Shown: positions 32,347 through 52,566 of the stretch, piece by piece | How positions within the stretch are numbered: the first letter of the stretch is position 1 | How the letters are laid out: every line of letters starts with the position of its first letter | DNA from: an uncultured bacterium | Lineage (GTDB): Bacteria; Patescibacteriota; Minisyncoccia; Phycocordibacterales; Phycocordibacteraceae | NCBI GenBank assembly: GCA_903825105.1 | Contig: CAIJZI010000006.1 | Span: forward strand, 1,399 to 65,398 | Reading direction: 5' to 3' | Length of the DNA stretch: 64,000 nucleotides | Notes under the pieces: model-generated | Told to the model about the DNA's origin: nothing | Seen by the model: only the letters and a program-made list of their open reading frames with translations | Database searches by the model: none | Program-made: the position numbers and the translations under genes

Positions 32347-32388
32347 GCATATAGACAATAGCAGACATATCGCGATATTCACAAATTG

Positions 32389-32461: not shown

Positions 32462-32537
32462 GGTTTATTGTGGCGCCGTAATAGGAATTACGGCATCCTA
32501 CAAAATTATACTCGCCGATTACGGCTCGTTAATTTTG

Positions 32538-32690: not shown

Positions 32691-32692
32691 AT

Positions 32693-32968: not shown

Positions 32969-33000
32969 ACTGCCGTCTACTAGTATACCGCACTTGAGGG

Positions 33001-33249
33001 ATGTATACTAGGGGTATGTCAATACAAAGTTTCTTATTAAATCAGTACGCGAAGTGGAAGTTGAAGGATATGCCGGTCGAGCAGCGCGAACAGATGACCG
33101 CTCTCGTCTCAAAGGATCCAGAACTTTTTAAAAAAATCGGTGAAGAAATCGAGCGAAGGAAGAAGGGCGGGGAGCCAGAGATGAAGGCAGCGATGGAGGT
33201 GATGAAGAAGTATCGCGCCGAGCTCTCGGTGCTGATGCAAAATAAATAA
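33001..33249 (+). CDS. Small charged hypothetical protein
   Basis: 82-aa Lys/Glu-rich helical ORF. Confidence 0.35.
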   Translation: MYTRGMSIQSFLLNQYAKWKLKDMPVEQREQMTALVSKDPELFKKIGEEIERRKKGGEPEMKAAMEVMKKYRAELSVLMQNK

Positions 33250-33259
33250 TACATAAAAT

Positions 33260-33769: not shown

Positions 33770-33796
33770 CATAGTAATTACCGCTCGTATTGTATA

Positions 33797-34966: not shown

Positions 34967-35003
34967 GATAATAACGAAAATCATTAATAATTATATCTAA
35001 CAT

Positions 35004-35711: not shown

Positions 35712-35712
35712 T

Positions 35713-36135
35713 ATGAAAAAGTTTTTAAATAAAACATTCAATCTCGCGGGTCTTTTAAGAGGGTTTTTAACAGGGGTAACGATCGGGCTGCTTCTATTCT
35801 TTCTTATAATTATTATCGGAGGATTAAAAGTAATTGAATCTGACGCTATATCTTTTATCTTTTACACAGTAACATTTCTTCCGGCTATCATTTTAGCGAT
35901 TTTAAAAGCGCGATCCAGCCCTGCTAAAATAAGCGAAGGTATTAAAAGATGGGTTGACTCAACAAGATCAGTTACCAATCTTAGTTTCGCCGCTGGTTCT
36001 GGGTTTGCGGATTCACTATTCCCAGAACAAATTACCATCAAGAGATTTCTTATAGAAACAATTTATTGGTTAAGCATAATAGCTTTTGTTATCTGTTTGA
36101 ATATGGCGGCATACTATGTGTACAGTAATCAATAA
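35713..36135 (+). CDS. Hypothetical membrane protein
   Basis: Four hydrophobic segments. Start is adjacent to the previous stop (operon). Confidence 0.4.
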   Translation: MKKFLNKTFNLAGLLRGFLTGVTIGLLLFFLIIIIGGLKVIESDAISFIFYTVTFLPAIILAILKARSSPAKISEGIKRWVDSTRSVTNLSFAAGSGFADSLFPEQITIKRFLIETIYWLSIIAFVICLNMAAYYVYSNQ

Positions 36136-36398
36136 TTAATCATCATTCTGAATTTATTTTTCTTTTTAAACAAAAACAAGCATTTAAAGCGCAAATAGTG
36201 TAAATTAAAAAGATGTTGAAAATTGGCATAGTGTGAACACTATCTGCCATCACTCTGGGTTAGAAAGAGAGAAACGCATCCCATTTTCATTTGTTATCAA
36301 GCTCCCTCCTCCGGATCATCGGACGGTAAAGCGAGCATTAAGAGAACTTCCTGTTTCCTAACCCTATATACCGTCAGGAAGCAGGAAGATGGTTCGGG

Positions 36399-37556
36399 TT
36401 GTGGCATACTTTTCCTATGGAGACCAAAACTCCTATCGAGCCATCCCTTCGTGCTCGTCAGCATTATTCCGATTTGTACGACAAGCACACGGTCGAGCAT
36501 TGCCGCTGGTGGGAGCAACATTCTCCGACGGTCGAGGATCTGAGGAAGGGCTGGACCAAGAAGGATAAGAAATTTGATGAGAAGGAGGCGCTGCGCACAG
36601 CCAATGCCTTTGGTCGTATGCACATGTATTTCATTAAGGGCGACCGTTATATCAAGAAAGACCAGACAATTAGGGAATGGATGGAGAGAGACGAGCAAAG
36701 AGACCGATTCTTTGAGGCCGCTAGTGCTCCCGAGAATATAAACTGTTTGACCTGCGGACGGCTCATGTTTGTGGGTTCAAAACATCTCCATAGCGGAGGA
36801 TTGAAGGAGCCCGATCGCATTCTATTTTTCTACGAGTGTCCGCTAGAGCATTTTCCGCTCAGAGCTTTCTATGACAATGGTGAGGAATTCAGGCGAGAAA
36901 AACCTCTTTGTCCCAAGTGCGGTGCAGCAGTTGTAGAGGAAGACAAAACTGCCGATGAGAAGTTCACCACCATCATCACCTGCTCAAAATGTGGCCACAC
37001 GGAGACGAGCGAGATAGAGCGTACGGTGAATAAGCCAGATCCGAACTTTGATAGAGATCGTGCTCGCTTTTGCCTAACAGAAAAAGAAGGCCAAGAATTT
37101 ATCCAAGGCCAAGAGAACATTAAAGGGCTAGCAAAGCTCATGGATGAAATAGAAGAGAAAAAGAAGCATAAGGATACCTATGACAAGGTGGCAAAATTAA
37201 AGAAGCTGAAAATCATTGAACTCGAAGAGTTGCTCACCCCTGTTCTCGAGAAGGCCGGGTACATCAAACTCCAGCTGAAGAACCCCGAGATCACCAAGGA
37301 CGTGATTGTTCCGTTTGTTGTGTATGAAAAGCGACCGGATAGAGAGGGGCGTGCAAGCACCTACGAGCTTGAGAAGCTTCTCAGGAAGACGCTCCTGGAG
37401 ACAAATTGGCGACTTATGACGGATGGCACAACTTACCGTTTGGGCATGCTAGAGGGGCGTTTTAGAGGCTATGAGAGGGAAGAAGACCTACTTGAGCTGG
37501 TACGGACCAAAGAAAAAAGAGAGGCGAAGCGAAAGAATGGTGAGGCTGGTAATTGA
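36399..37556 (+). CDS. Hypothetical protein with three CxxC zinc-ribbon-like pairs and a Lys/Glu-rich C-terminus
   Basis: 'CLTCGRLMF', 'CPKCGAAV', 'CSKCGHTE'. First gene of the accessory block. Confidence 0.45.
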   Translation: MWHTFPMETKTPIEPSLRARQHYSDLYDKHTVEHCRWWEQHSPTVEDLRKGWTKKDKKFDEKEALRTANAFGRMHMYFIKGDRYIKKDQTIREWMERDEQRDRFFEAASAPENINCLTCGRLMFVGSKHLHSGGLKEPDRILFFYECPLEHFPLRAFYDNGEEFRREKPLCPKCGAAVVEEDKTADEKFTTIITCSKCGHTETSEIERTVNKPDPNFDRDRARFCLTEKEGQEFIQGQENIKGLAKLMDEIEEKKKHKDTYDKVAKLKKLKIIELEELLTPVLEKAGYIKLQLKNPEITKDVIVPFVVYEKRPDREGRASTYELEKLLRKTLLETNWRLMTDGTTYRLGMLEGRFRGYEREEDLLELVRTKEKREAKRKNGEAGN

Positions 37557-37833
37557 GAGATTTCTACGGATTTACGTCCGAAACGAGGCTTTACAGGCAC
37601 TTTTATCCTAATTAATCTGAATCAATCCGAAAAAAGTGAGCATTTAAGCCGTATTCAAAAACCACAGTTTAAGAAAAAGTGCTCAAAAAGGCACTTTTAC
37701 TGCTATTTTCGTGTAAAAAACGTGTATTTTTGTGTCATTTTTTGCTACTTTTAACCACTCAGAGAAGTGACGTTATAAAACACATCATGCACAAAATTGG
37801 TGTCAAATATGGAAAAGTCCTATACTTCTTGTA

Positions 37834-39915
37834 ATGGACACAAACGGCAAGTATCTGAGAACGACTCTCGAAGCGCTTCATTTGGAAGATGCGACAGAAG
37901 TTGCAGAGACCACAAGAAATGCTTCTAACATAGTTGGTGCAATAATTTCTGCTTATGGTGGCACCACTGAGATCGGAATAGATCGTATAGCAGTTCCTCC
38001 CGGTCCTGCAACAGGGTTGGTTTATGGCCGTATACAGAGTGGTAAAACTCGAGCTATGATCGCAAGTACTGCTCTGGCTTTTGATAATGGTTTCCGAATC
38101 TCAATAGTGATGACGAGTAACATTAATGATCTGGTAAGTCAGACACATCTAGATTTTTCAAGTGGATTGCCAGGCGTGATGACTTTTACGAAGGACAATG
38201 ATTTCGACAAAGAAGTTGCAAATACAAAGGTCCAAATGGAAAAAGGTGATGCACGACTGTTGATCGTTTGTTCAAAGGGCGCGGGAAGTCTCCAAAACGT
38301 TTCTGCTTTCCTCAGAACTATAGGAGGCGAAAATTATCCAGCAATAATTTTTGACGACGAAGGAGATCAGGCTTCCTTAGATACTAACACTCATCGTCGT
38401 TCCTCTGGTGCTGCGCTTGCTCCGAGTAGTATAAATCAAATCATTCAGTCGCAACTTCGAATCGCATTAACACGTCATGTGTACGTAAGTGTGACAGGAA
38501 CACCACAAGCTGTCCTTCTTCAAAGCGCTGATGCTAGTCATCGCCCATCATTTATTGTTATGTTGCCTCCAGGTGCTTCCTATATCGGCGGCGACCACTT
38601 CTTTGGGAAAGACGAGCCGGAAGATAATGAAGACCATCTCGTTAGTATTATCGAGCAAAACGAGAAGGAAGAAATTCTCAATGACGCCGCGCCTATTCCT
38701 AACGGACTACGACGCTCAATCCTATTTTTTCTTATAGCTTCTGCAGCAGCTATCAAAAATAAAGGTCCTCAGGAAAAGGGTTATTCCTACCTGTGCCACC
38801 CTAGTCTTAAAAATATTGAACAGGATCGTGCTGAAGCTAGAATAAACACGTTTCTCACTGAGATTACTGAAACATTGCTGGATAATAATGAGAACGCAAT
38901 TCTTCGAGAATTACGAGAAGCTTATGAGGAGTTAAAACGGACGCTTGGAGAAGAGACTCCAAATTTTGATGAACTGAAAGGGATTGTACGTCAACAATTG
39001 GCAACACGACGACTGCTGGTGATTAACGCAAAAATAAAACGCCAGGGTATCGCATACGGGGGAGGACTGAATTTCCTTATAGGAGGTAACACTCTCGGAA
39101 GAGGTATCGCCGTAAAAAATCTTCTCGTAACCTACTACGTACGCGATTCCAAAATGTCTCAGATTGATACTATGCACCAGCACGCTCGTATGTACGGGTA
39201 TCGTTCTGCAACCCTGAAATATACAAAGCTGTATATTCCGCGTCATCTGTACTATAGATTCCGTGACATTCATTTTTCTGATACTGATCTTCGGAACTTT
39301 ATTGATGCTCATAAAGATGACCTCCCGTCGTCTTTCCCAGTCGAGTACACAAATGTCTTAAGAGCAACCCGTCCTAGTGTATTGGATGCTGATAAGACTG
39401 ACACACTACGACCCGGTCTTCAGATCTACCCTAATTATGTGGTCGTTCCTCAGCCTTCGATTAAATACGCGAATGTGCTAACACGTATTCGTTCGCACCT
39501 CGGTTTTACTACTGAGCTAGAGAATGCAATGGCGGAAACTGGTCGGGCAGGAGTCACCATAACAAGAGACGAGGCTATTGAGCTTGTAGAGATGATAAAG
39601 ACGCGATCACAAAATACGTGGCGTGATAAAACTATTGGGGCCGTTATAACAAAAGTCGCCGAGAGAATGGGAGATAGTGTGACTTTGAAGTTTAGAACCG
39701 CAGAGCGTACTGTCCGCGAAGACGGCTTTATGTCGACTGGTACATTGTCTGGTGATGAACTGACACAGGCACGTGGGGCTACCATACCCACACTATGGAT
39801 CATGGCTGTACACACGACACCGGATAGCGCCGCCGGTGCTGGCCAACAGTTTATGTATCCCACTTTTGTGATACCCGAGAGTCTTGGTAGCCTTTTCATT
39901 TTCAACAAAGGGTAG
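37834..39915 (+). CDS. Z1-domain-like P-loop protein (a family often found next to Dcm-type methyltransferases)
   Basis: 'GLVYGRIQSGKTRAMIASTALAFDNGFRISIVMTSNINDL' Walker A-like motif; 'AIIFDDEGDQASLDT' DE(G)D Walker B-like motif. 693 aa. The Z1 assignment is from memory of the Pfam Z1 pattern and needs an HMM check. Confidence 0.5.
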   Translation: MDTNGKYLRTTLEALHLEDATEVAETTRNASNIVGAIISAYGGTTEIGIDRIAVPPGPATGLVYGRIQSGKTRAMIASTALAFDNGFRISIVMTSNINDLVSQTHLDFSSGLPGVMTFTKDNDFDKEVANTKVQMEKGDARLLIVCSKGAGSLQNVSAFLRTIGGENYPAIIFDDEGDQASLDTNTHRRSSGAALAPSSINQIIQSQLRIALTRHVYVSVTGTPQAVLLQSADASHRPSFIVMLPPGASYIGGDHFFGKDEPEDNEDHLVSIIEQNEKEEILNDAAPIPNGLRRSILFFLIASAAAIKNKGPQEKGYSYLCHPSLKNIEQDRAEARINTFLTEITETLLDNNENAILRELREAYEELKRTLGEETPNFDELKGIVRQQLATRRLLVINAKIKRQGIAYGGGLNFLIGGNTLGRGIAVKNLLVTYYVRDSKMSQIDTMHQHARMYGYRSATLKYTKLYIPRHLYYRFRDIHFSDTDLRNFIDAHKDDLPSSFPVEYTNVLRATRPSVLDADKTDTLRPGLQIYPNYVVVPQPSIKYANVLTRIRSHLGFTTELENAMAETGRAGVTITRDEAIELVEMIKTRSQNTWRDKTIGAVITKVAERMGDSVTLKFRTAERTVREDGFMSTGTLSGDELTQARGATIPTLWIMAVHTTPDSAAGAGQQFMYPTFVIPESLGSLFIFNKG

Positions 39916-39961
39916 GATTGTCCCTCTCGAGTTTTCTCCCAATTAGTTCTATAATGGGCAC

Positions 39962-41050
39962 ATGACAGCCAAGAGCTCGCTAAAGAAGAGTGACGTAAAA
40001 ATAGTTGATCTATTTTGTGGAGTTGGCGGTTTAACACACGGCCTCATTCTTGAAGGGTTGGACGTTGTTGCTGGTGTCGACAATGATGAATCCTGTCGCT
40101 TCGCTTTCGAGAAGAATAATTCCTCTGAGTTCATATACAAAGATGTTGCTGAGTTTTCAGCCAAAGAACTTCGGCGTCTTTATGCCGACGCCCCCATTAA
40201 AGTTCTTGTGGGTTGTGCTCCATGTCAACCATTTTCTACAATGAATCGAACAAAGAACACAGCTAAGGATCGAAAGAAGCGGTGGGGTCCTCTCTATCAC
40301 TTCATGGCACTTATTAAAAACACGCATCCCGACGTTATTTCCATGGAGAATGTCCCGGATCTAGCAAATACAAAAAAATATCCCGTGTTTGGTGAATTTC
40401 TAAAGACTCTAAATACGGAAGGCTATAATGTGGAGTACCGTGTTGTTGATGTGTCACGATATGGAGTACCTCAGAAACGAAGAAGGTTAGTACTTCTTGC
40501 TTCATTGCTTGGAGATATATCGTTGATTCCAGAAACTCACGATAAGGATAACGCTGTGACTGTACGCGAAACTATAGGCCATCTGCCTGCAATTAAAGAT
40601 GGTCAAGTCCATAAGGACGATCCTCTTCACTGGGCAAGTAAACTTAGTGAGACCAATAAGAAAAGAATTGTAGCCACTCCAAAGAACGGAGGGAGCGCGA
40701 AGAGCTGGAGCAAGGAGTTGGTCCCAGATTGTTACACACGGGAAAGTGGGAAAGGGTATATGTCGACTGTGTATGGAAGAATGCGATGGGATGATGCTTC
40801 TGCCACAATAACTACACACTGCACAACATTGGGAGCTGGACGATACGGACATCCAAAACAAAATCGTGCAATTTCTTTGCGAGAAGCAGCATTGTTGCAA
40901 AGCTTTCCTGAATACTATGAGTTTGAACGACCAGAGAATATTTCTATGGTTAAAACAGCGCGGCATATAGGGAATGCCGTGCCAGTCTTGCTAGGGCGTA
41001 CCATAGGGAAAAGCATTAGAAAGCATATCGAAGAACATCTTGCGGCTTAA
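39962..41050 (+). CDS. dcm: DNA (cytosine-5)-methyltransferase
   Basis: Motif I 'DLFCGVGGLTHG', motif IV 'GCAPCQPFS', motif VI 'ISMENVPDL', motif VIII 'QKRRRLVLL', motif X 'IGNAVPV'. Confidence 0.85.
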   Translation: MTAKSSLKKSDVKIVDLFCGVGGLTHGLILEGLDVVAGVDNDESCRFAFEKNNSSEFIYKDVAEFSAKELRRLYADAPIKVLVGCAPCQPFSTMNRTKNTAKDRKKRWGPLYHFMALIKNTHPDVISMENVPDLANTKKYPVFGEFLKTLNTEGYNVEYRVVDVSRYGVPQKRRRLVLLASLLGDISLIPETHDKDNAVTVRETIGHLPAIKDGQVHKDDPLHWASKLSETNKKRIVATPKNGGSAKSWSKELVPDCYTRESGKGYMSTVYGRMRWDDASATITTHCTTLGAGRYGHPKQNRAISLREAALLQSFPEYYEFERPENISMVKTARHIGNAVPVLLGRTIGKSIRKHIEEHLAA

Positions 41051-41175
41051 TCGTGGACCTATCACCGACCTCCCTCAGAGATGATGGTGGAGTATACAAC
41101 TTGTGTTCTCGAATGACCTCGATTATTTATACAATCGCGCAAAATGTCATAAACGGCCTTTTCTGCTAGGATTAC

Positions 41176-42168
41176 ATGAACATGGCTTTGTTCAAGATAA
41201 ATGGCTCGGCAGTGAGGAAATTGGCCGCTAAAGACCTCGATTTAGAGAAGCATCTTCAGGCACTCTTTGAAGGAAATCTTGATGAGCTCTTAAACATAAG
41301 TTTCCTGGCCCACGAATATTCCACGAGTTCTGGTGGGCGGATCGACACTCTCGGTATCGATAAAAATGGCTCGCCTTGCATCATCGAATATAAACGAGGA
41401 CAGGACGATAATGTCATAAACCAAGGACTTTCATATTTACTGTGGCTTCTTGACCATAAAGCTGATTTCGAGAAACTTGTCGCAGAGTCGTCACACTTAC
41501 AACTTGAGGAAGTGATAGCGGAACAAGATTTACGTAACGGAGATGCTGTTCCTGTAATGAAGAAACGCGCGCCGTCAATCGACTGGGATTCGCCGCGAGT
41601 GATTTGCATTGCAGAAAGCTATAACAAATTCGATCTTGATACCGTCGATATATTGCCGATTAAGGTGGAGCTTTTCCGCTATCGCATATACGACGACAAT
41701 ATTCTATATCTCGAGCCAGAGAGTCACAAAAAAGTCCGTGTCTCAACGTCTAGCATTGTTCGCAAAGAAAAGACTGTTAAGGATAAGGAGACACAGCTAC
41801 AAAAGAGTTACTCGGTCGATGATCATCTTGTTGGTGTTAATCGAGATACGGTGACGCTTTTTCAGGCACTCCGGGAACAAATTCTATCGCTCGATGAGGA
41901 AATCCGAGAAGAACCCATGAAGTTCTATATCGCCTATAAATTGGCCACGAATTTTCTGGATATCGAGCTCCATAAGAATGATATGAAGCTTTTTCTTAAT
42001 ATAAAGACAGGACAACTAGATGACCCGTATGGTCTAGCTCGTGACATGGAAACGCCGAAGCATATTGGGCACCACGGTAATGGTGACTACGAAATTAAGC
42101 TTGAGAGAGCAGAAGATTTAGATAAAGCATTCGCTTTGGTTAAACAGAGCTATGATTTGAATAAATAG
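41176..42168 (+). CDS. PD-(D/E)xK-fold nuclease-like protein (restriction endonuclease-like/DUF91-like N-terminal domain) with unknown C-terminal domain
   Basis: 'GGRIDTLGIDKNGSPCIIEYKRG' fits a D…(E)xK nuclease core. The stop is 1 nt before the next methyltransferase gene. Confidence 0.5.
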   Translation: MNMALFKINGSAVRKLAAKDLDLEKHLQALFEGNLDELLNISFLAHEYSTSSGGRIDTLGIDKNGSPCIIEYKRGQDDNVINQGLSYLLWLLDHKADFEKLVAESSHLQLEEVIAEQDLRNGDAVPVMKKRAPSIDWDSPRVICIAESYNKFDLDTVDILPIKVELFRYRIYDDNILYLEPESHKKVRVSTSSIVRKEKTVKDKETQLQKSYSVDDHLVGVNRDTVTLFQALREQILSLDEEIREEPMKFYIAYKLATNFLDIELHKNDMKLFLNIKTGQLDDPYGLARDMETPKHIGHHGNGDYEIKLERAEDLDKAFALVKQSYDLNK

Positions 42169-42169
42169 T

Positions 42170-43243
42170 ATGGAAGCCAAAGTTTTAAATACAGGCCTTA
42201 ACAAAGCTGGTCAAGCAAAGAAAGATGAGTTTTATACTCAGCTCGTTGATATTGAAAAGGAACTGAAGCACTACAAAAGTCAGTTCCGTGGCAAAGTGGT
42301 GTATTGCAATTGCGACGATCCATTCGAGAGCAACTTCTTTAAATATTTTGCCGCCAATTTCAACGCACTCGGGTTGAAGAAACTTATCGCCACGAGTTAC
42401 AAGCCGTCTCCCATAGCAAACACGCAGTTGGGTTTATTTGGCGACATCAAAGCGTTAGACACCCCCAAAGGCCGCCCTAAAGTAACCGCTAACAAATTCA
42501 TTATCAATGAAGTTGATGATATAGACGGCGACGGAGCTTTTGACTTGCGTGATATTGCCGAGCAGCTCAAGGCTAATAAAAACAACGAATGGGCTCCATT
42601 AGAAGATGAGGGGGATTTTAGAAGCAAAGAAAGCATAGAACTGCTAAAGCAAGCTGATATTGTTGTAACAAATCCACCGTTCTCCCTTTTTCGTGAGTAT
42701 GTTGCACAGTTAATGGAACACGGTAAGAAGTTTTTGATTCTTGGTAATCAAAATGCCATTATCTACAAAGAGGTTTTTATGTTCATTAAAGAAAACAAGT
42801 TATGGCTTGGTTATGACAACGGCGGTACAAAGTGGTTTCAGGTTCCCAATGACTATGATATTCAAACCGAATCGAGAATTAAAACTGAAAACGGTGTGAA
42901 ATATTTCAGTATGGGTAGCGTTGTTTGGTTTACAAATCTTGATACCACAAAACGTCACGAGGAGCTGACGTTATACAAGAAATACAGCCCAAGAGAATAT
43001 CCAAAGTACGACAATTACGACGCAATTGAAGTCTCGAAATATCTCGACATCCCTATGAATTACGATGATGTGATGGGAGTGCCTATCACTTTTCTTGATA
43101 AATATAATCCAAATCAATTTGAGATCATTGGCTCAAACCGTGGCATCGATCAGGATTCGAAAGGGGTATACGGCAGGGGGTCTTTTTTGAAAGGCAGAGA
43201 AACTTTTAAGCGAATTTTTATCAAAAACAAAAATGTAAAATAA
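42170..43243 (+). CDS. N6-adenine DNA methyltransferase, EcoRI-methylase-like
   Basis: 'KKDEFYTQLVDIEKELKHYKSQFRGKVVYCNCDDPFESNFFKYF' and 'IVVTNPPFSLFREY' (NPPF motif IV). Confidence 0.6.
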   Translation: MEAKVLNTGLNKAGQAKKDEFYTQLVDIEKELKHYKSQFRGKVVYCNCDDPFESNFFKYFAANFNALGLKKLIATSYKPSPIANTQLGLFGDIKALDTPKGRPKVTANKFIINEVDDIDGDGAFDLRDIAEQLKANKNNEWAPLEDEGDFRSKESIELLKQADIVVTNPPFSLFREYVAQLMEHGKKFLILGNQNAIIYKEVFMFIKENKLWLGYDNGGTKWFQVPNDYDIQTESRIKTENGVKYFSMGSVVWFTNLDTTKRHEELTLYKKYSPREYPKYDNYDAIEVSKYLDIPMNYDDVMGVPITFLDKYNPNQFEIIGSNRGIDQDSKGVYGRGSFLKGRETFKRIFIKNKNVK

Positions 43244-43248
43244 TCAAT

Positions 43249-44340
43249 ATGAAAATCGAACCACATCAAATCCCAATACGCGAAGTAGTTGCCGACTATA
43301 GGGACAGCGATGAAGAGGGAGTTGTTGCTTACGGTGGCAAGCTTGATGTACGTCCGAAATATCAGCGGGAATTTGTGTATAAACCTGAACAGCGCAATGC
43401 TGTATTGCACTCCGTCCGGCACCAGTTTCCTCTCAATATTATGTATTGGATAGAAAATAGCGGCGGGAATTACGAAGTGCTTGATGGTCAGCAACGCACT
43501 TTAAGCATTTGTCAGTACGTTAATGGCGACTATTCAATCAATGATCGCTATTTTCATAACCTTACAAAAGAGGAGAAGGATCAGATATTGGACTACGAGC
43601 TCATGATTTACTTTTGTGACGGCACAGACAAAGAACGTATCGAGTGGTTTGATGTCATAAATACAGCAGGTGAAAAGCTCACGCCGCAAGAATTACGTAA
43701 CGCCGTTTATACCGGTCCGTGGCTTTCTGATGCAAAACTCAAATTCAGCAAAAGGAACTGTGTAGCATATTTACTTTCTAACGATGGTGGGCAACTAATC
43801 AGCGGAGATACAATTCGTCAAGAATACCTGGAAACCGCGCTCTCGTGGATAAACAACGGTGAAGTGGCGGACTACATGGCGAAGCATCAGCATGATAAAA
43901 ACGCTAACGACTTGTGGGAGTACTTCCAAAACGTCATCGCGTGGGTGCGCAAGACGTTCCCGAATCATCGCAAAGAAATGGCAAGCGTGAATTGGGGCGA
44001 GTTGTACAACGAGTTCAAAGATGAAAACCTGGATGCCAAGAAACTAGAAGCCGAGGTTGCGAAGCTGATGCAAGATGAGGACGTGACAAAGAAATCAGGG
44101 ATCTATCCATTCTTACTCACAAGGCAAGAAAGGCATCTTTCAATTCGCGCTTTCAATGACAAGATGAAGCGCGAGGCGTACGAGAGGCAGAATGGAATCT
44201 GCGTAAAATGTGAAGAGCGTTTTGTGATAGAAGAAATGGAAGCCGACCACATAAAGCCGTGGCACGAAGGCGGCAAAACCATCGCCGAGAATTGCCAGAT
44301 GCTATGCAAGCAAGATAATCGGACGAAGTCGGGAAAATAA
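43249..44340 (+). CDS. DUF262 (ParB/GmrS-like NTPase) – HNH endonuclease fusion; GmrSD-like type IV restriction candidate
   Basis: '[13 protein letters not shown]' DGQQR motif. C-terminal '[40 protein letters not shown]' HNH motif. Confidence 0.75.
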
Positions 44341-44345
44341 TATTT

Positions 44346-45623
44346 ATGAATGAAATCATCTGCCCACATTGTAAAAAAGCTTTCAAAATTGATGAGGCTG
44401 GCTTTGCTGACATATTGAAGCAAGTGCGAGACCGTGAGTTTGATAAGGAGCTACACGACCGCCTTGAGTTATTGGAAAAAGACAAAGAAAACGCTGTAAA
44501 GCTTGCTGAAGCAAACATCAAGAATGTCTTGCAAGCTGAAGTTGCCAAGAAAGACACTGAACTCGCAGAGCTAAAAGCTCAGAAAGATGCTCTTGTTGGT
44601 GAACTTAAGGCAGAGAAGGATACCGAAATTGCTCGCTTGCAAGCGAGGGTTGAGTCTGCTGAGACCGAGAAGAAGCTGGCCGTCACGGAAGCGGTGGTCA
44701 AGGTTGAAAAGGAGCGTGATAGGTTATCAGGCGAATTGAAGAATAAAGATACTGAAAAGCAGTTGATCGAGACCTCGCTTAAGGAGAAATTTACAGCGGA
44801 GCTCAAGACTAAGGACGACATCATCCGGCACAAGGATGAGGAAATCGCGTTGCGCAAGGATATGAAACTACGGCTTTCTACAAAAATGATAGGTGAGACT
44901 CTCGAGCAGCATTGCGAGACGGAGTTCAATAAGCTTCGCGCAACAGCCTTTCAAAATGCGTATTTTGAAAAGGACAACGATTCTAAAACCGGTAGTAAGG
45001 GCGATTATGTATATCGCGAGAGTGACCCGGATGGCAACGAGATCGTCTCTATTATGTTTGAAATGAAGAATGAGGGTGATGAGACCACCACAAAACACAA
45101 AAACGAGGACTTTCTGCGCGAACTCGATAAGGATCGTACAGAGAAAAAATGCGAATATGCTGTCCTCGTGTCGTTACTGGAGGTAGAAAATGAGCTATAC
45201 AATACCGGCATTGTCGACGTTTCCCACAAGTACCCCAAAATGTATGTGGTTCGGCCGCAGTTTTTCATCCCCATAATCACACTTTTGCGCAATGCAGCAA
45301 TGAACTCTCTCAAATATAAGGCAGAGCTTGCTCTCGTACGAAATCAGAATGTTGATATAACCAACTTTGAGGAGAACATGAATAACTTTAAGGAAGGCTT
45401 TTCAAAAAATTACGAGCTTGCCAGCCGTAAATTCAAAACCGCGATTGAGGAAATCGACAAAACCATTGAACATCTACAGAAAACAAAAGATGCGCTCGTG
45501 TCGTCTGAAAATAATCTTCGTCTTGCCAATAACAAAGCAGAAGATCTGACCATTAAGAAATTGACGCGGGGAAACCCCACGATGACAGCTAAGTTTGAAG
45601 AAATTTCTGATACCAATAAGTAG
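44346..45623 (+). CDS. DUF2130-family coiled-coil protein
   Basis: '[36 protein letters not shown]' is the characteristic DUF2130 N-terminus, followed by a long coiled coil. Confidence 0.65.
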
Positions 45624-45718
45624 CAAGCGCGTTCTTGCTTAATCCGGCGTCGGAAATTATTAAAACTTGCGGGACTGGACCTGGGCGATACGTTAGAGAT
45701 TTGACAGGCAAGGTGATT

Positions 45719-46087
45719 CTAATAGGGGATTCCCTTCTCGACGTTTCCAGGCGGGAGCAGATTCTGTACCCGTTCGTTTTGAATTATTGAGGTGTGAGTG
45801 AACCACATCATGAGGGCTAAAAAGAAGACCCACACATATGTGAAGGTGAAGTCTTTATTCATATCTTTCTTGCCTTCGAAGTATGACCTCCAAAAGAAGA
45901 AAAGAATGAAAACGAGAGCGACGAGCTGCAATGGTCGACCAATAGAATCATGCACCACATCCACTACGAGTATGAAATAGCTCAGGGCGATCGTACCAAC
46001 CCATGTGGCGATTAATGCCAGAATCTCTCGCTTGAGCTCCTCCTGAGCCTTTTTAGCCTTGAATTCGTCCAAATTGGTCGTACCCAT
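45719..46087 (-). CDS. Small three-TM membrane protein
   Basis: 122-aa hydrophobic ORF; no motif recognised. Confidence 0.35.
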   Translation of the reverse strand: MGTTNLDEFKAKKAQEELKREILALIATWVGTIALSYFILVVDVVHDSIGRPLQLVALVFILFFFWRSYFEGKKDMNKDFTFTYVWVFFLALMMWFTHTSIIQNERVQNLLPPGNVEKGIPY

Positions 46088-46122
46088 ATGACAAGTATAC
46101 TTGGTAGAAGGATAGTTGTCAT

Positions 46123-46359
46123 TTGCCCATACTCAGAGGTATGGGGAAGCACCCGCCAATCGTGCCTAAATTCGCCAGGAAGCTCAGGAGCGAGCGTGAA
46201 GAACGTGGTTTTAGCCAAGAGTCTTTAGCGACCGCAGCAGGCCTGAGCCGGAACTACATAGGCATGATTGAACGTGGGGAGTCCAATCTTACTCTCGGTA
46301 CAGTCGAGAGGCTGGCACGAGCTCTTCGTATGGAGAGTTGGGAACTTCTCAAATTTTGA
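46123..46359 (+). CDS. XRE-family helix-turn-helix transcriptional regulator
   Basis: 'FSQESLATAAGLSRNYIGMIERGESNLTLGTVERLARAL' is the HTH_XRE consensus. Confidence 0.65.
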   Translation: MPILRGMGKHPPIVPKFARKLRSEREERGFSQESLATAAGLSRNYIGMIERGESNLTLGTVERLARALRMESWELLKF

Positions 46360-46368
46360 TAGTCTATC

Positions 46369-47151
46369 TTGATGCCGGTCGACAAAGACATCCTGGGTAT
46401 AACCGACCAGCTTCCTGAGCCGAAACAAAGGATATTTCTAACACTCACTAAATTTATACAAGCTCGTCAGAGGCGTGCTGCTGGAACGAAAAAACTTCGT
46501 GCAATTGCCATTGAGGATTTTGCAGATACTGAAATTACGGAGACAGACATTTGGCACTTTCTTGAAATTTTACGGAAGGTTTATCGCACTGTACAAGAAC
46601 CGCCGATCACAAGTGTGCTTACGGTTCATAAGTCATTGCCAAATCCCGGGATCACTTCTGGCCCCGATGGAAAGAAATATGCCACTGGCCTAGAGCCGGA
46701 AGTTATTACAAAAATTTACGAGCTTCTACTCGAAAAGTTTGGTGAAATCAAACCAGTATTCACAAAGGTTGAAAAACCGATCGTACAGGAGATTGTAATG
46801 CCGGGTTCGCGCTACCCATTGCTTATTGCAGATGACAACAGGGGGTATCTAAAATTTTATAAAGAAGGCCGTCGAATAGATATCGGTAAAATTACTGGCA
46901 GAAAATATCTTTTACTTTCCGTACTCATGAAGCCTCTTGGAACAGCTCGCACTATTGATTCAGTCTTTGATGTCATTTCGCAACCGAAGGACTGGCGTGA
47001 TTCCGACTTAAAAGACGCGTATAGAAGCGATTTTCGAAAACGCGAGCTCATAGACTATGCAATAAAGGATTTACAGAAGATTAAAGGTCTCACGGGTAAA
47101 ATAACCCTCCGCAATTACGGCAAAGATAAAATTGCACTAAAACTTGGTTAG
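46369..47151 (+). CDS. Hypothetical protein of the mobile-element module
   Basis: 260-aa ORF immediately downstream of the XRE gene. Confidence 0.4.
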   Translation: MMPVDKDILGITDQLPEPKQRIFLTLTKFIQARQRRAAGTKKLRAIAIEDFADTEITETDIWHFLEILRKVYRTVQEPPITSVLTVHKSLPNPGITSGPDGKKYATGLEPEVITKIYELLLEKFGEIKPVFTKVEKPIVQEIVMPGSRYPLLIADDNRGYLKFYKEGRRIDIGKITGRKYLLLSVLMKPLGTARTIDSVFDVISQPKDWRDSDLKDAYRSDFRKRELIDYAIKDLQKIKGLTGKITLRNYGKDKIALKLG

Positions 47152-47299
47152 AGGGTTTTAAAACACCGAGCTCATGGGAGCTTCGGGCTCTTTCGTGGAA
47201 GCCTTATTTCTAGGCGTATTTTTGACACAAAATTAGAGAAATCCCTCTCAATCCCTCTGATTCAAGCTGAGTGAGAGGGTTCTATACGCTCGGTCTCAT

Positions 47300-47608
47300 A
47301 TGACCAAAAATATAAAAGCAGGTGCGGAAGAAAGTGAACTTAATAAGGAAGTGCGAAAGTTCTTTCCAAAAGACTTGGATGTAGGGCTTGTTGAGTTTAG
47401 TGGCGCAGAAGATCGGCCGGTTCTACGAGCTGAATATGAGGCCAACATGTGCCCTTGCCCCACGTGCACGACAGACCCGATCTGTACTTGCGGGTCGTTG
47501 GGAGTAAATGGCCCGTGCAGCACATGCGTACCTGACTGCGTTTGCAGTGACGCAGATTATTATCACCCTTGTCCTTGCGACACGTGTGCCTCACAAGACA
47601 TCGTATGA
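47300..47608 (+). CDS. Small Cys-rich protein
   Basis: 15 Cys in 'CPCPTCTTDPICTCGSLGVNGPCSTCVPDCVCSDADYYHPCPCDTC'. Its stop overlaps the next start (ATGA). Confidence 0.4.
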   Translation: MTKNIKAGAEESELNKEVRKFFPKDLDVGLVEFSGAEDRPVLRAEYEANMCPCPTCTTDPICTCGSLGVNGPCSTCVPDCVCSDADYYHPCPCDTCASQDIV

Positions 47609-49497
47609 AGCCGCTCACTCAAAGCGAATTCATTGCGTTGTTTCCTCACACACGCTTCCGTTACATACATGATGTAAAGAAGCTGGTCGTGCAGGGGAGC
47701 GATTCGCTCGATTCATCATGGAATGAAAAGGGGTACGGCGTTTTCTATACCGTCAACGGGTTTCCATCCACCGGTAAAGCTGACGAATCACGCCTGCTGT
47801 CTCTCAATGCAAATTATGTCGACTTCGATGTTGATGCGAGCTTGTCTCAAGAAGAGAAAGAAAAGCTTATCCAAGAGACGCTCATGTCTGGTCTCGAGTC
47901 CGGCGCTCCAACGCCAACGATTGTAAATCGCACCCAGAAAGGCGCGCACCTTATCTGGCTCTATCCGGAACCACTTGAGCCAACTTCTGAGAATGTTGCG
48001 AAGTGGCGTCAGGTGCAGAAGCGAATGGTGCAGTGCTTTAAGGGCGATCCGGCAGCAAAAGATCCTTCTCGAGTGCTCCGCGTTCCGTATACGCTCCACT
48101 TGAAGAATCCCGCGAATCCTTTCGAAATCAAGATTGCCTCATACAAGCCTGACGCACGCTTTACGCTGGAGGAGCTAGATGTGTCAGCTCCGCAGTATGC
48201 GGAACTCGAAGCTGACGAGAAAGTCCCAGCAAAGGACTTGCTGACGCAGGGAGTGGAAATCGGTAAGGGGCAGCGACACACGTCGATGGCACAAGTCGCT
48301 GGATTGTTGCTCAAGGACGCAACAACACTGGAGCATGTCCGGAATGCTCGGTTGGCTCTCTATGGATGGGACAGAACCGTGGTGAAGTCACCCGAGCCTT
48401 TCCAACAGCGTAAGTCGGAATTGGATAGCACGATAGACGGGATATGGAAGCTTGAACTTGAGCGCAGAACAAAAGACGAACCGCAAAAGGATTCCCCAAA
48501 GACATTTCGCTTGTGGAGCCTCGCCGAGATATTGGGTCATGACTTTGGTGAAGAGCAGTGGCTTGTAGAACCCCTGATCACCAAACAGGGAATAACGGCG
48601 CTCTCTGGTAATCCAGGTGACTACAAGACCTGGAATGCAATCCATATCGCACTCTGCGTAGCGCGAGGTGGTCTCGTATACGGAAAATTCCAAGCGACTC
48701 AGGGCAGTGTCCTCATTATTGACGAAGAAGATCATCTTCGTTTGATAAAAGGTCGCTTGGAACTACTTGGTGCGAACGACACCGATTCGATTAGCTACAT
48801 CTCGCAAGGTGGTTTCAAGGCAGACGATAAAGATGCGCTCGCAGCTGTTCTTGAAATCGTTAAAGAGAAGGACATCAAACTCGTTATCCTTGACTCGCTC
48901 GTGCGTATTCACCAGCAAGATGAGAACGACGCGATGGGCATGGCTAAGGTCTTCAGTAGCATCCAACAGCTGATTGGCGCGGGCGCATCCATTCTCTTCA
49001 CTCACCATCATCGCAAGCAACAGGGCTTGGGGAATCACAACCCCGGACAGAGCATGCGGGGCTCGTCTGACATCCTCGCGGCTGTAGATTCGCATCTCAC
49101 CATCGAGAAGAAACGTGACGACAAGGATAGTTTGGTTATTACGCAAACGAAGTCGCGGCAGGCTGAGGCGCTCACACCGTTTCAGATCCATCTGCTCAAA
49201 GGGCCGTCAGGTCCCTCGGGGTTTGAGTATGTAGGCGAATACGATGAGAAGAAACTCAAGGCTGCTGAAGTTGCAGCTTCAATCGTCTTCTTGCTTGCGG
49301 ATGGACAAAAGAGCCGTCCAGAAATACATGAGGCTCTCAATGAGGATTTTGGGAAATCGGCGATAGATAGCGGTCTCAAAATCGCAGAAGGAGAGGGGAC
49401 CGTTGTCCGTGTCCCCAAAGAAGAACTTTCTCCTGAGGAACGCCGCAAAACCCACTATCGTCTCCCAGGCGTGTCTTCGAGTCCGGCCGTCGAATAG
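47605..49497 (+). CDS. Primase-polymerase (Prim-Pol) N-terminal domain fused to RepA/DnaB-like AAA_25 helicase domain
   Basis: 'YGVFYTVNGF…NYVDFDVD' is a Prim-Pol DxD motif. 'ALSGNPGDYKTWNAIHIALCVARG' Walker A-like motif; 'LVILDSLVRIHQQDENDA' Walker B. Confidence 0.6.
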   Translation: MKPLTQSEFIALFPHTRFRYIHDVKKLVVQGSDSLDSSWNEKGYGVFYTVNGFPSTGKADESRLLSLNANYVDFDVDASLSQEEKEKLIQETLMSGLESGAPTPTIVNRTQKGAHLIWLYPEPLEPTSENVAKWRQVQKRMVQCFKGDPAAKDPSRVLRVPYTLHLKNPANPFEIKIASYKPDARFTLEELDVSAPQYAELEADEKVPAKDLLTQGVEIGKGQRHTSMAQVAGLLLKDATTLEHVRNARLALYGWDRTVVKSPEPFQQRKSELDSTIDGIWKLELERRTKDEPQKDSPKTFRLWSLAEILGHDFGEEQWLVEPLITKQGITALSGNPGDYKTWNAIHIALCVARGGLVYGKFQATQGSVLIIDEEDHLRLIKGRLELLGANDTDSISYISQGGFKADDKDALAAVLEIVKEKDIKLVILDSLVRIHQQDENDAMGMAKVFSSIQQLIGAGASILFTHHHRKQQGLGNHNPGQSMRGSSDILAAVDSHLTIEKKRDDKDSLVITQTKSRQAEALTPFQIHLLKGPSGPSGFEYVGEYDEKKLKAAEVAASIVFLLADGQKSRPEIHEALNEDFGKSAIDSGLKIAEGEGTVVRVPKEELSPEERRKTHYRLPGVSSSPAVE

Positions 49498-49689
49498 CTA
49501 TGGCAGGTCGCTCGGCAAAGCAGGATATGGAAGTCCTCTACAAAGAGGCTGATGCTTTGTCGGAGCACGAGCATGACTTGGACGCCGCATTCGATTTGCT
49601 CTTTGAGAAAGTACTGAAGCGGCGGATGGAGTTGTCCACAACGCCTCTTCACAAAGAAATGACAACTGTGTATAATTAAGCATATCACT

Positions 49690-49884
49690 ATGGCCATCAA
49701 ATTTCTTACCAGAGAGGAAGTGGGAACTTATCTGCGAGTTAATCCTCGGACCGTTGATCGCTGGCTGAAGAAAGGTCTCTTGAAAGGCTACAAGCTCGGG
49801 AAGGGTTCGACTTCAATGTGGCGAATACCGGAGAGCGAGATAGAGAAATTCCTCAAGAAACACGCTAACAAGAAAACACAATGA
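49690..49884 (+). CDS. Excisionase/MerR-like HTH DNA-binding protein
   Basis: 'LTREEVGTYLRVNPRTVDRWLKKGLLKGYKLG' matches the HTH_17/Xis pattern. Overlaps the recombinase start by 4 nt. Confidence 0.55.
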   Translation: MAIKFLTREEVGTYLRVNPRTVDRWLKKGLLKGYKLGKGSTSMWRIPESEIEKFLKKHANKKTQ

Positions 49885-51524
49885 ATGATTCCGCATCAAA
49901 ACCAATACGACTCATTTCGATATATGCTCGTGTCTCAACTGCACGGCAAGAGGAAGACGGCACTATTGAAACTCAATTAGCGGCAGTACGTGAATACGCC
50001 AAGAAGAACGAGTACACCGTGGTGAGAGAGTATGTCGACGAAGGATGGAGCGGAGACACACTCAAACGTCCAAATCTGGATGAGTTGCGGCAGGATGCAA
50101 AGGACAAGCTTTGGGACGGGGTTTTGTTTTATGATCCGGACCGGCTTGCGCGTCGATATTCATATCAGGAGCTCGTTATGGATGAGCTCAAAGAAGCTGG
50201 GGTCGAAGTCATGTTTGTTACAGTGCCTGCCCCTAAAAATAGCGAGGATAAAATACTCCACGGGGTGCGAGGGCTTTTTGCCGAATATGAGCGAACGAAA
50301 ATTGCTGAGCGATTTCGTCTGGGTAAGCTGCGTTCAATAAAGGAAGGTCACATCATTGCGAGCCGCCCTCTGTATGGGTACACCCGTGTTGTCAGAAATG
50401 GTAATGAGCAGGGTTACTACGTTATTAACGAAGAAGAAGCGGTCGTCGTGAGAAAAATCTTTGCCTGGATTGCCAACGGGGGACTAACCATTCGGCAAGT
50501 CGTTCGAGAACTGCAAGTACTCGGTATTAAGCCGCAGCGAAGTAAGCGTGGCGTCTGGAGCACAAGTACTCTAACGACCATGCTCCGTAACGAGGGCTAT
50601 ATTGGAAGAGCGCATTGGTATAGCTCTGTTGCTGTAGAACCTAAGAACCCGATTAGTAAAGAAAAGTATAGAAAGATAAAGAAAAGCAGCACAAAAAAGC
50701 GACCCAAAAGCGAGTGGATGTATGTCGCCGTCCCAGCAATCGTTGACGAGGAGTTGTTTAATCGGGCAGGCTCTAGACTCACCGAGCACGCTACGCTCAA
50801 CCCTAGAAGCAAGAAATATGAGTATTTGCTGGGAGGAAAGATTAAATGTCCGTGCGGACAGAAACGAATTGGAGCTGGGCGAAAGCTCGGTCAATATCTC
50901 TACTACGACTGTTGCGATAAGGTCTTGTGTTTTCCGCTCCCGAGAAAGTGTTACGAGCAGGCTATAAATGCACGAATCGCGGATAAGCTGGTCTGGGCAA
51001 AACTATCTGATCTTATGAGTTCGCCCGACCTGCTCACGAAGCAAGCGGGTCGGTGGGCAAAGGCGCGACAAGACAAAGCCAAAGTGTCAGTTGGTGATAG
51101 TGCCGGAATGGAGAAGCAAATCGCTAAATTGAAGGAGGAACAAGAGCGGTACACAAAAGCCTACGGTTCAGGTGTCTTCACTATGGAGCAGCTTAAGGAG
51201 TACACAACCCCTGTACGTGAGAAAATAACCTCCCTCGAAACACAAATCTCAAAGGTTCAGCAGGCGGTGCGACGAGTCGATCTCGAGGCTCCGCCAACTG
51301 AGAAGGAGATAGAAGCTTTTGCAAAAGAGGCTCACGAAGCTTTGCTCGACTTGAATTTCCAAGAGAAACGAGCAATAGTGCTTTATACCGTAGAAGAAAT
51401 CATTGGCACCCAGCAGCAGTTGCAGGTGTCCGGATACATCCCGGTAACAACTACTAATGGCTGGTACAAAACTAAAGATAGGAATCGTCGGACTGCCGAA
51501 TGTTGGGAAGTCGACATTATTTAA
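49881..51524 (+). CDS. Large serine recombinase (integrase)
   Basis: Resolvase catalytic domain 'IYARVSTARQEEDG…'; recombinase domain; zinc ribbon 'CPCGQK…CCDKVLC'; coiled-coil C-terminus. Last 68 nt overlap ychF. Confidence 0.85.
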   Translation: MNDSASKPIRLISIYARVSTARQEEDGTIETQLAAVREYAKKNEYTVVREYVDEGWSGDTLKRPNLDELRQDAKDKLWDGVLFYDPDRLARRYSYQELVMDELKEAGVEVMFVTVPAPKNSEDKILHGVRGLFAEYERTKIAERFRLGKLRSIKEGHIIASRPLYGYTRVVRNGNEQGYYVINEEEAVVVRKIFAWIANGGLTIRQVVRELQVLGIKPQRSKRGVWSTSTLTTMLRNEGYIGRAHWYSSVAVEPKNPISKEKYRKIKKSSTKKRPKSEWMYVAVPAIVDEELFNRAGSRLTEHATLNPRSKKYEYLLGGKIKCPCGQKRIGAGRKLGQYLYYDCCDKVLCFPLPRKCYEQAINARIADKLVWAKLSDLMSSPDLLTKQAGRWAKARQDKAKVSVGDSAGMEKQIAKLKEEQERYTKAYGSGVFTMEQLKEYTTPVREKITSLETQISKVQQAVRRVDLEAPPTEKEIEAFAKEAHEALLDLNFQEKRAIVLYTVEEIIGTQQQLQVSGYIPVTTTNGWYKTKDRNRRTAECWEVDII

Positions 51525-52566
51525 TGCACTGACAAAAGCGTCGGTGCCGGCGGAGAATTATCCCTTTTGTACCATCGATCCTTCGGTCGGCGTGGTCGGC
51601 GTGCCTGACGAGAGACTCCAAAAACTTTCTGACCTTTCAAAGTCGGCGAAGACGATTCCTGCCGCGATAGAATTCGTCGACATCGCCGGGCTCGTGAAGG
51701 GCGCTGCAGATGGTGAAGGATTGGGGAATCAATTTCTCGCAAACATTCGCGAGACGGATGCGATTCTTCAAGTTGTGCGTTTTTTTGACGATACGAATAT
51801 TCTTCATGTCGACGGGACCGTCGAGCCGTATAAAGATATTGAAATAATTAATCTCGAACTCGCGCTCGCTGATATGGAGCAGGTGAAGAAACGACGGGAG
51901 AAGATTGTGCGCGATATTAAAGCGGGAGATAAAAACGCGATCGCGGAGGACGCCGCGCTCGCGAAGCTTGAACAAAATTTTCAACTCGGGAAGCTCGCGA
52001 TTCATGCCGGATTAACTGCGGATGAGAAAAAAATAATCGCGTCGCTGAACCTGCTCACGATGAAGCCGATTCTCTATGCTTTTAATAAAAAAAGTGGTGG
52101 GCACAATCTCGACGAGCTCGCTGACGGTCGCGCGGAGCGCGCGCATGAGCTCGTTAAATCGCTCGGCTTTAGATATGTGATGGTTGACGCAGCGACCGAG
52201 AGGGAATTAAACGATGTCGCGGACGATGATAAAATTGGATTCCGCCAAGAGTTTGGCGTGCCCGAAGATGGCCTCGTTGATCTGATCCGCGGAGCATACG
52301 ATACGCTCGGGCTGATTTCATTTTTTACCACCGGAGAGGACGAGACGCGCGCGTGGACGATTGTTCGAGGGAGCAGCGCTCCTGTCGCTGGTGCTGCGAT
52401 CCACACGGACTTCTTAGATAAATTTATTCGCGCTGAAGTCGTCTCGACTACTGACCTTCTCGCTGCTGGTAGCTGGGCCACCGCACGTGAAAACGCCAAA
52501 GTCCGCACCGAAGGAAAAGAATACATTGTTAAGGACGGAGATGTAATGGTCTTCTTGCACGGATAA
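51457..52566 (+). CDS. ychF: Ribosome-binding ATPase YchF (Obg-family GTPase)
   Basis: 'GIVGLPNVGKSTLFNALT' G1 motif, 'FCTIDP', 'EFVDIAGLVKGA', and a C-terminal TGS domain. Confidence 0.85.
   Translation: MAGTKLKIGIVGLPNVGKSTLFNALTKASVPAENYPFCTIDPSVGVVGVPDERLQKLSDLSKSAKTIPAAIEFVDIAGLVKGAADGEGLGNQFLANIRETDAILQVVRFFDDTNILHVDGTVEPYKDIEIINLELALADMEQVKKRREKIVRDIKAGDKNAIAEDAALAKLEQNFQLGKLAIHAGLTADEKKIIASLNLLTMKPILYAFNKKSGGHNLDELADGRAERAHELVKSLGFRYVMVDAATERELNDVADDDKIGFRQEFGVPEDGLVDLIRGAYDTLGLISFFTTGEDETRAWTIVRGSSAPVAGAAIHTDFLDKFIRAEVVSTTDLLAAGSWATARENAKVRTEGKEYIVKDGDVMVFLHG

Follow-up and report, generated by a model that had tools for sequence, protein, structure and literature searches.

A probable large serine recombinase island at the first codons of ychF in a patescibacterial genome, with its attachment site apparently inside the integrase gene

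Introduction

In a 64,000-nucleotide stretch of DNA from an uncultured bacterium of the Patescibacteriota (assembly GCA_903825105.1, contig CAIJZI010000006.1, positions 1,399 to 65,398 of the forward strand; hereafter the window), a string of restriction and defence genes ends in a serine recombinase gene that runs on into ychF, a housekeeping GTPase gene. The two open reading frames (ORFs) overlap by 68 nt, in different frames, as an earlier reading of the sequence (the original prediction) had described. Why should an integrase be read over the first codons of a housekeeping gene? Our answer, to which we give a probability of roughly 85%, is that these genes form an integrated 15,256-bp island of a large serine recombinase (LSR) family that targets the first ychF codons, and that the attachment site of the element, attP, lies within the integrase ORF.

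Patescibacteria genomes are tiny, and the mobile elements in them are poorly described. The best relatives of the window YchF all come from metagenome-assembled genomes (MAGs) of Patescibacteria/Paceibacteria. The island appears to represent a widespread, modular family that brings restriction and defence genes into these bacteria at a single conserved site. It would also offer a natural case of a serine integrase gene rewritten by the reaction that its product catalyses, with an attachment site that doubles as a repair patch for the target gene.

Attachment sites and the divided integrase gene

The features that carry the argument are listed below in window coordinates; a slash within a sequence marks the position immediately after the central GG.

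36201-36250 (approximate), + strand: attL, with the host B arm, GG at 36225-36226, and the element P' arm ending in GCCAT at 36246-36250
36213-36236, + strand: orphaned native ychF start, ATG TTG AAA ATT GG/C ATA GTG TGA
36227-36361, + strand: displaced 3' end of the integrase gene, 44 codons (to 36358), HSVNTICHHSGLEREKRIPFSFVIKLPPPDHRTVKRALRELPVS, then TAA
49881-51524, + strand: large serine recombinase in its integrated-state form, 547 amino acids (aa)
51457-51506, + strand: attR, with the P arm from ATGGC (51457-51461) to 51480, GG at 51481-51482, and the host B' arm
51457-52566, + strand: ychF, 369 aa, identified by hidden Markov model (HMM) search

Comparison with other genomes showed both the empty and the occupied state of this site. 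In the closest sampled genome (L001, YchF 80% identical) the ychF start is uninterrupted, and the gene (ATG AAA ATT GGA ATC GTG) begins 21 bp after the ortholog of the window gene at 33260-33769. Homology between the window and L001 DNA ends at about 33662 and resumes at 51475. A tblastn search with the window integrase found no match in any of 80 ychF loci, two of which (L009 and L033) carry truncated or decayed integrase ends. A separate set of 80 metagenome loci was fetched with the integrase alignment, and in 35 of these the ychF P-loop lies directly at the integrase 3' end. The proposals of the original prediction, that this is an integrative island with borders near 36.2 kb and at the start of ychF, that it was inserted by its terminal serine recombinase, and that the recombination site lies at the 5' end of ychF, all agree with these comparisons and with the structure of the two borders.

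At the left border, attL reads ...AAAAAG ATG TTG AAA ATT GG/C ATA GTG TGA ACA CTA TCT GCC AT, with the native ychF start to the left of the slash. The host B arm consists of the ychF 5' untranslated region, the ATG and four further codons, and the surviving piece at 36213-36226 matches the native ychF starts of empty sites (L004, ATGTTGAAAATCGG; L006, ATGTTGAAGATTGG; L003, ATGCTCAAAATTGG). The orphaned start is now a 7-codon mini-ORF, MLKIGIV followed by a stop. At the right border, attR reads ATG GCT GGT ACA AAA CTA AAG ATA GG/A ATC GTC GGA CTG CCG AAT GTT GGG AAG, and its host B' arm is formed by the P-loop codons of ychF. The only sequence common to attL and attR is the GG, together with codon-level similarity.

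The integrase gene was found to be divided between the two borders. Residues 1-534 of the integrated-state protein are element-encoded, and an out-of-frame reading of ychF DNA gives the last 13 (NRRTAECWEVDII). At 12 loci there is no ychF downstream and a longer integrase stands in its place. These long integrases match the ychF-linked copies through '..CTAACGATAGGCATCGTC..' and then diverge as '..GACACACCTCGACAT..', with a tail that encodes '..DRHRRDTPRH..IPFRFDVNIP..'. A profile of 11 long integrase C-termini, searched against all 2279 six-frame segments of the window, gave a single significant match, at 36209-36358 (E=6.7e-10; runner-up E=0.72). When joined at GG, this displaced end is in frame with integrase codon 534, and 49881-51482 together with 36227-36358 make one uninterrupted ORF of 578 aa, ending in ..KTKDRHSVNTICHHSGLEREKRIPFSFVIKLPPPDHRTVKRALRELPVS before its stop codon. 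The last 62 residues of this ORF show up to 50% identity to full-length relatives (BLASTP, E=4e-10). Judged from these reconstructed sequences, attP is contained in the integrase ORF; the overlap with ychF would thus be the recombination junction, and the true integrase C-terminus would be found at the other end of the element.

The geometry of the reconstructed sites agrees with this arrangement. The reconstructed attP is a 50-bp dyad, ATGGC-N19-GG-N19-GCCAT, running from ATGGC (51457) to GCCAT (36250) with the junction ...CTAAAGATAGGCATAGTGTGAAC..., and its length is independent of the assumed crossover position. The reconstructed attB is intact and encodes MLKIGIVGLPNVGK, with the junction ...ATGTTGAAAATTGGAATCGTCGGACTGCC.... 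Five relatives (L087, L089, L094, L110 and L128) have an exact ATG[TG]C-N19-GG-N19-G[AC]CAT (ATGTC...GACAT) at the same place in the integrase ORF, and L129 carries a 50-bp dyad at the end of an upstream integrase-like ORF. The attP arms match at 17/24 positions in L087. The att sites fit the LSR pattern of 50 bp, a dyad and a 2-bp centre, with the same geometry in six relatives. The GG is the non-palindromic centre of the dyad, and all attP, attL and attR sites examined have it; as bases one and two of the first P-loop glycine codon, it is fixed against synonymous change. From the dyad symmetry and this invariance we infer that crossover occurs at GG (51481-51482 / 36225-36226), which would make the element 36227-51482, 15,256 bp.

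In two further loci, L106 and L130, the fetched DNA spans both junctions, and the implied elements measure about 10.7 and 11.3 kb. At attL each has a short stub of the ychF start, then a P' arm and an orphaned integrase end (E=8e-12 and 3e-14), and at attR each reads ATGTC-N19-GG. The bare half-site ATGKC-N19-GG was rejected as evidence, since it occurs 9 times in the window against 10 expected by chance. The pattern alone is uninformative, so the argument rests on position and family conservation.

We also noted a heptamer, ATAGTGT, around attL, with direct copies at 36195-36201 and 36228-36234 and an inverted one (ACACTAT) at 36237-36243. These copies explain the inverted repeat previously proposed at the left border, which is indeed present (36224-36249, within attL), as well as the different pair (36237-36247 with 36191-36201) returned instead by a gapless repeat tool. 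The heptamers could be due to chance or could form a protein-binding site.

The rebuilt ychF start

The first eight ychF codons and the GG (MAGTKLKI-G) are element-derived, and MAGTKLKIG replaces MLKIG at the N-terminus. The same bases also encode ..NGWYKTKDR.. of the integrase in another frame. The outer motif of the P arm, ATG(T/G)C, lies in the ychF frame 24 nt before GG. An in-frame ATG at -24 from the P-loop GG was present in 31 of 36 integrase-linked ychF genes (30 with ATGTC, the window with ATGGC). Only 2 of the 78 ychF genes of a genome scan had one, and the native ATG in that scan was placed at -15 (48 genes), -9 (14) or -12 (8). Both exceptions are integrase-linked, L009 with a truncated and L033 with a frameshifted integrase end, so that none of the 76 truly empty ychF sites has an ATG at -24. 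This distribution indicates that insertion swaps a ychF N-terminus of 3-5 codons for one of eight. The earlier suggestion that the element now supplies the ychF upstream region was therefore right, and can be extended to the first eight codons of the gene.

In L033, the integrase remnant at about 9400-10025 is frameshifted and decayed and still provides the ATGTC start of ychF. It looks like the fixed scar of an old insertion.

The integrase and its family

HMM searches placed PF00239 (Resolvase) at integrase residues 14-156 (E=9e-31) and PF07508 (Recombinase) at residues 184-302 (E=3e-17). R17 and S19 of the RVS motif are invariant across 25 aligned sequences, and so are the cysteines C323, C325, C344 and C357 of the zinc-ribbon domain that follows; PF13408 is precomputed for many close relatives. 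By these sequence-level criteria the protein qualifies as a large serine recombinase, as had been predicted. It has more than 2000 relatives; the best 120 are 55-71% identical and come mainly from Patescibacteria MAGs. The C-terminal tails were oddly conserved across the 25 aligned integrases (e.g. ..DRNRRTAECWEVDII and ..RNxRxAECW), and such tails are ychF P-loop DNA (GIVGLPNVGKSTLFN) read out of frame.

The association with ychF extends over a wide range of divergence. Integrases linked to ychF reach down to 35-37% identity with the window integrase, and the identity of the host YchF to that of the window ranges from 41% to 85% across integrase-linked loci. If crossover does take place on a GG that is proof against drift, this would account for the ability of a single integrase clade to use hosts with YchF identities down to 41%. 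With its core in a P-loop motif that is among the most conserved known, the target could serve as a broadly portable landing site for genome engineering.

An HTH_17 protein lies directly 5' of the integrase in 31 related loci, and also in L174 and L175, and the other proteins of the window element have 0 to 4 matches among related loci. The family therefore seems to consist of a conserved helix-turn-helix (HTH)-integrase module with exchangeable replication and defence cargo. Most of the variable genes belong to restriction-modification and defence. The element in L106 carries a type III restriction-modification pair. In L174, another Paceibacterota MAG, the integrase is 65% identical, overlaps ychF by 68 nt as in the window and provides an ATGGC start, and the cargo comprises type I restriction genes and a GmrSD_N protein.

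Several relatives had unusual arrangements. In L130, a tyrosine recombinase gene (8513-9625) lies near the serine integrase in the ychF-inserted element. Two family integrases (3-593 and 7563-8732) occur about 7 kb apart on the single contig of L129, the first with an uninterrupted C-terminus and a full 50-bp attP; these may be tandem or nested elements. In the 629-aa integrase P0096, the att-encoding C-terminal stretch is duplicated (..VELFTNDRHGVNTNPPDYVEFKTNHRHGVNTIRH...), and the duplication looks like two half-sites joined in tandem within the ORF.

Proposed mechanism

We propose that the excised circle encodes the 578-aa integrase, dimers of which would pair attP with attB, that is, with the ychF 5' untranslated region, start codon and P-loop codons (MLKIGIVGLPNVGK). 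Strand exchange would take place at the GG of the first P-loop glycine codon. In the attL product, the host ychF start would be severed as a 7-codon stub and joined to the last 44 integrase codons. In the attR product, the P arm, read in the ychF frame, would give an ATG start and eight codons and so leave YchF intact, and the integrated integrase would end in 13 out-of-frame ychF codons, at 547 aa. The P arm would thus code in two frames, once for the integrase C-terminus and once for the replacement YchF N-terminus with its start codon.

Transcription of ychF probably starts inside the element, because the best promoter-like site of the region is present at 49648-49676, the real genes all face ychF, and no terminator-like site was found on the + strand between the integrase and ychF. 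The host ychF promoter would now face the leftmost genes of the element. Excision would need a directionality factor, for which the conserved HTH_17 protein is the candidate, and the primase-helicase could replicate the excised circle.

The position of attP in the integrase gene might also act as a built-in state switch, although we put this forward tentatively and think it somewhat more doubtful than probable. Only the excised circle would then make the 578-aa integrase with the conserved IPFxFxIxLPPP tail, and the enzyme from the integrated copy would have 547 aa, the last 13 of them without meaning. Stability, or the direction of recombination that is favoured, would then set the two forms apart. 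Such a switch would parallel the integration-dependent immunity of phage BPs, acting here on a serine integrase. The long and short integrase forms offer a direct test of the role of the C-terminal tail.

Several observations weigh against the reading of an inserted, recombinase-borne island as set out here. The arms of the window attP agree at only 12/24 positions. The crossover dinucleotide is a deduction, and coding logic alone would permit a shift of a few bases. The excision role of the HTH_17 protein and the source of ychF transcription are deduced from position and from a consensus promoter match. The analysis found neither an excised circle nor a same-population empty site, and the attP junction had no match in IMG/VR. 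Exact-protein look-ups of the window integrase and YchF returned no match, and the same was true of P0001, the 100% identical entry. Finally, an uninterrupted integrase with attP can also be chromosomal, as in L112, on a 1.5-Mb contig, and in an IS-rich region of Bradyrhizobium AP014685. An intact attP is therefore not always a free circle, and these two copies rule out the idea that every uninterrupted integrase with attP represents a free circle or plasmid.

In the Bradyrhizobium diazoefficiens copy (L161; AP014685, 4434065-4455879), the full-length integrase with its unrecombined attP-like site lies among transposase genes and a coupling-protein gene.

Alternative explanations

The insertion may have happened as described and the island may since have become fixed and immobile, the overlap being a scar and the genes being kept for defence and for ychF expression. 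We regard this as unlikely but worth serious thought. It would account for the failure to find excised or same-population empty-site sequences, and L033 shows that decay does occur and that a frameshifted remnant can still give ychF its ATGTC start. However, the integrase ORF in the window is intact, as are both att arms, the HTH partner and the replication gene. The 44-codon orphan is likewise free of stops and frameshifts and keeps the family motif IPFxFxIxLPPP.

That the element should be classed with prophages or phage satellites, and not with plasmid-like islands, is less probable. Satellites typically combine the modules seen here, namely an XRE regulator, an excisionase-like HTH protein, a primase-helicase and an integrase. 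However, the element proteins have no match among the PHROG families for structure, packaging or lysis: capsid, terminase, tail and lysis genes were all absent, and the PHROG matches were limited to HNH, primase/helicase, regulator and excisionase families. The integrase relatives in IMG/VR are only distant (about 30% identical), and the cargo consists of restriction and defence genes. As for conjugation, HMM scans of the window element found no relaxase, oriT or coupling protein. Replic_Relax and TrwB-like genes do occur in some distant relatives whose integrase is uninterrupted (L089 and L123).

An island reaching further left, from 33.8 kb or from the tRNA cluster at 32.3-32.6 kb, as the original prediction had allowed, is very improbable. 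The whole of 33770-51474 is missing between the orthologous flanks in L001. The part of it that lies outside our borders includes an AT-rich block (33797-36135) that encodes a bPH_2 membrane protein, a DUF805 protein and a 140-aa ORF, and its GC content (0.349, against 0.484 in the backbone) is the most deviant of the region. The absence of 33770-51474 from L001, and an ATGAA at 33797 that resembles the L001 ychF start, were the initial basis for a left border at 33.77 kb. This border was rejected, since the native ychF stub, with its AT-rich upstream region, and the orphan integrase end both lie at 36.2 kb, 3' of the block. The block is located 5' of the native ychF promoter region and start, and no recombinase or integrase trace was found in it; the six-frame search with the integrase C-terminus profile gave no other match in the window, including 33.8-36.2 kb. 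It is a separate difference between the genomes, an insertion or a deletion, and lies outside the element. Genes 32657-33769 belong to the backbone, syntenic with L001, so the tRNA cluster is not a border.

Five tRNA genes are present at 30292-32610, Ala-TGC on the + strand and Pro-CGG, Val-CAC, Ala-GGC and Ala-CGC on the - strand; they lie 5' of the syntenic backbone genes and are unrelated to the island border. L001 has its own 6.4-kb insertion (2853-9234) between the orthologs of window 32657-32953 and 32997-33249, which shows that the region 5' of ychF is variable in both genomes.

It is scarcely credible that the overlap has nothing to do with insertion and reflects a resident regulatory link of ychF to a domesticated recombinase: the overlap is conserved in many lineages, but 76 empty ychF sites lack any recombinase, the cargo differs entirely between loci, and the link is already contradicted by the structure of attL, where the displaced integrase end can only be explained by recombination within the ORF.

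Relation to known systems

The LSR elements phiC31, Bxb1, SPbeta SprA and A118 resemble the ychF island in several respects. They share the Resolvase, Recombinase and cysteine-rich zinc domains, the dyad att sites of about 50 bp with a 2-bp non-palindromic centre and no long flanking direct repeats, and the insertion into a protein-coding gene. Unlike in these systems, attP here would lie in the integrase ORF, so that the last 44 residues are exchanged on insertion, and the target gene is repaired rather than disrupted.

Repair of a target gene has reported parallels. SCCmec, with its Ccr recombinases, is said to insert at the 3' end of rlmH (orfX), and SXT/R391 at the 5' end of prfC. Both reportedly supply replacement codons that leave the target gene intact, and SXT is said to add a new 5' end and a promoter. 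These elements are like the ychF island in their site-specific insertion at the end of a housekeeping gene that is then repaired; they are unlike it in that SXT uses a tyrosine recombinase and the SCCmec target is a 3' end. The replacement codons of SCCmec and SXT are not known to lie inside the recombinase gene in another frame.

In archaeal viruses of the SSV1 type, insertion reportedly partitions the integrase gene. In the integration-dependent immunity of mycobacteriophage BPs, attP lies in the repressor gene and insertion alters the C-terminus of the repressor (PMC4557955). These two systems share with the ychF island an attP within a coding gene and a change in the encoded protein on insertion, but they use tyrosine recombinases and the ychF island a serine integrase. 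The effect of the tail exchange has been demonstrated for the BPs repressor and is hypothetical for the integrase of the ychF island.

ychF itself has been named as the integration site of LSR-encoding pipolins of Actinomycetota with defence cargo (bioRxiv 10.1101/2024.05.22.595293), so ychF is not new as an LSR target. Unlike pipolins, the present element has no piPolB, the pipolin hallmark (no element protein matched a PolB family in Pfam, NCBIfam or PHROGs); its replication gene is an AAA_25 primase-helicase, and its host belongs to the Patescibacteria. A pneumococcal prophage is located between dnaN and ychF, with a 14-bp direct repeat in the ychF promoter and altered ychF expression, by a mechanism that differs from that of the ychF island (PMC6375853). 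An incomplete literature search found no description of a serine integrase with attP in its own ORF that also encodes a new start for the target, and nothing relevant on serine-recombinase islands in Patescibacteria. An attP inside the integrase gene with such dual coding appears to be undescribed.

Gene content of the element

All genes listed in the original prediction, from the zinc-ribbon protein to the recombinase, were found by HMM scans and ORF listing, in full, on the + strand and with HMM support. In addition to the integrase and ychF, the following features were identified.

36399-37556, + strand: cargo protein with a weak zinc-ribbon match (HMM, E~0.003), likely start ATG at 36417
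37834-39915, + strand: Z1-domain ATPase, restriction-associated (Pfam Z1, 3e-34; PADLOC Helicase_II, 3e-75)
39962-41050, + strand: C5-cytosine DNA methyltransferase, Dcm type (1e-59)
41176-42168, + strand: NucS-like PD-(D/E)xK nuclease with DUF5655, a defence candidate (PADLOC PDC-S18, 3e-96)
42170-43243, + strand: EcoRI-family N6-adenine methyltransferase (2e-137)
43249-44340, + strand: DUF262 (GmrSD_N) and HNH endonuclease (PADLOC REase_II PDLC03418, 5e-129, full-length match)
44346-45623, + strand: DUF2130 protein (1.5e-88)
45719-46087, - strand: possible small membrane protein, doubtful as a real gene (weak matches only)
46123-46359, + strand: XRE-type HTH regulator or control protein (HMM)
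46369-47151, + strand: protein without a family match, partially similar to ORFs of the L130, L082 and L092 elements
47569-49497, + strand: replication protein with an AAA_25 helicase (HMM) and weak N-terminal primase-polymerase PHROG matches
49648-49676, + strand: promoter-like site, TTCACA-17-TATAAT, 11/12 consensus (consensus match only), 5' of the HTH-integrase-ychF string
49690-49884, + strand: excisionase-family HTH_17 protein (HMM), candidate recombination directionality factor or regulator

The EcoRI-type methyltransferase gene adjoins the DUF262-HNH gene with its REase_II match, and the Dcm gene lies beside those of the Z1 ATPase and the PDC-S18 nuclease. From these family matches, the cargo seems to comprise two methyltransferase/nuclease sets and accessory proteins, that is, restriction-modification and candidate defence genes. 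Their GC content is lower than that of the backbone, as had been noted before, and the difference is real but modest: 0.437 in the restriction part versus 0.484 in the backbone, with 0.455 for the whole element and 0.486 in the replication/integrase part. In L174, the protein at the position equivalent to 47569-49497 has NrS1-1_pol-like and AAA_25 domains.

The ORF at 45719-46087 is the only one of the element on the minus strand, and promoter-like sites at 46088-46122, between it and the XRE gene, point in both directions. At the left end, a 21-nt inverted repeat (36347-36388) with adjacent arms of 81% complementarity covers the stop codon of the orphan integrase end and lies just 5' of the first cargo gene.

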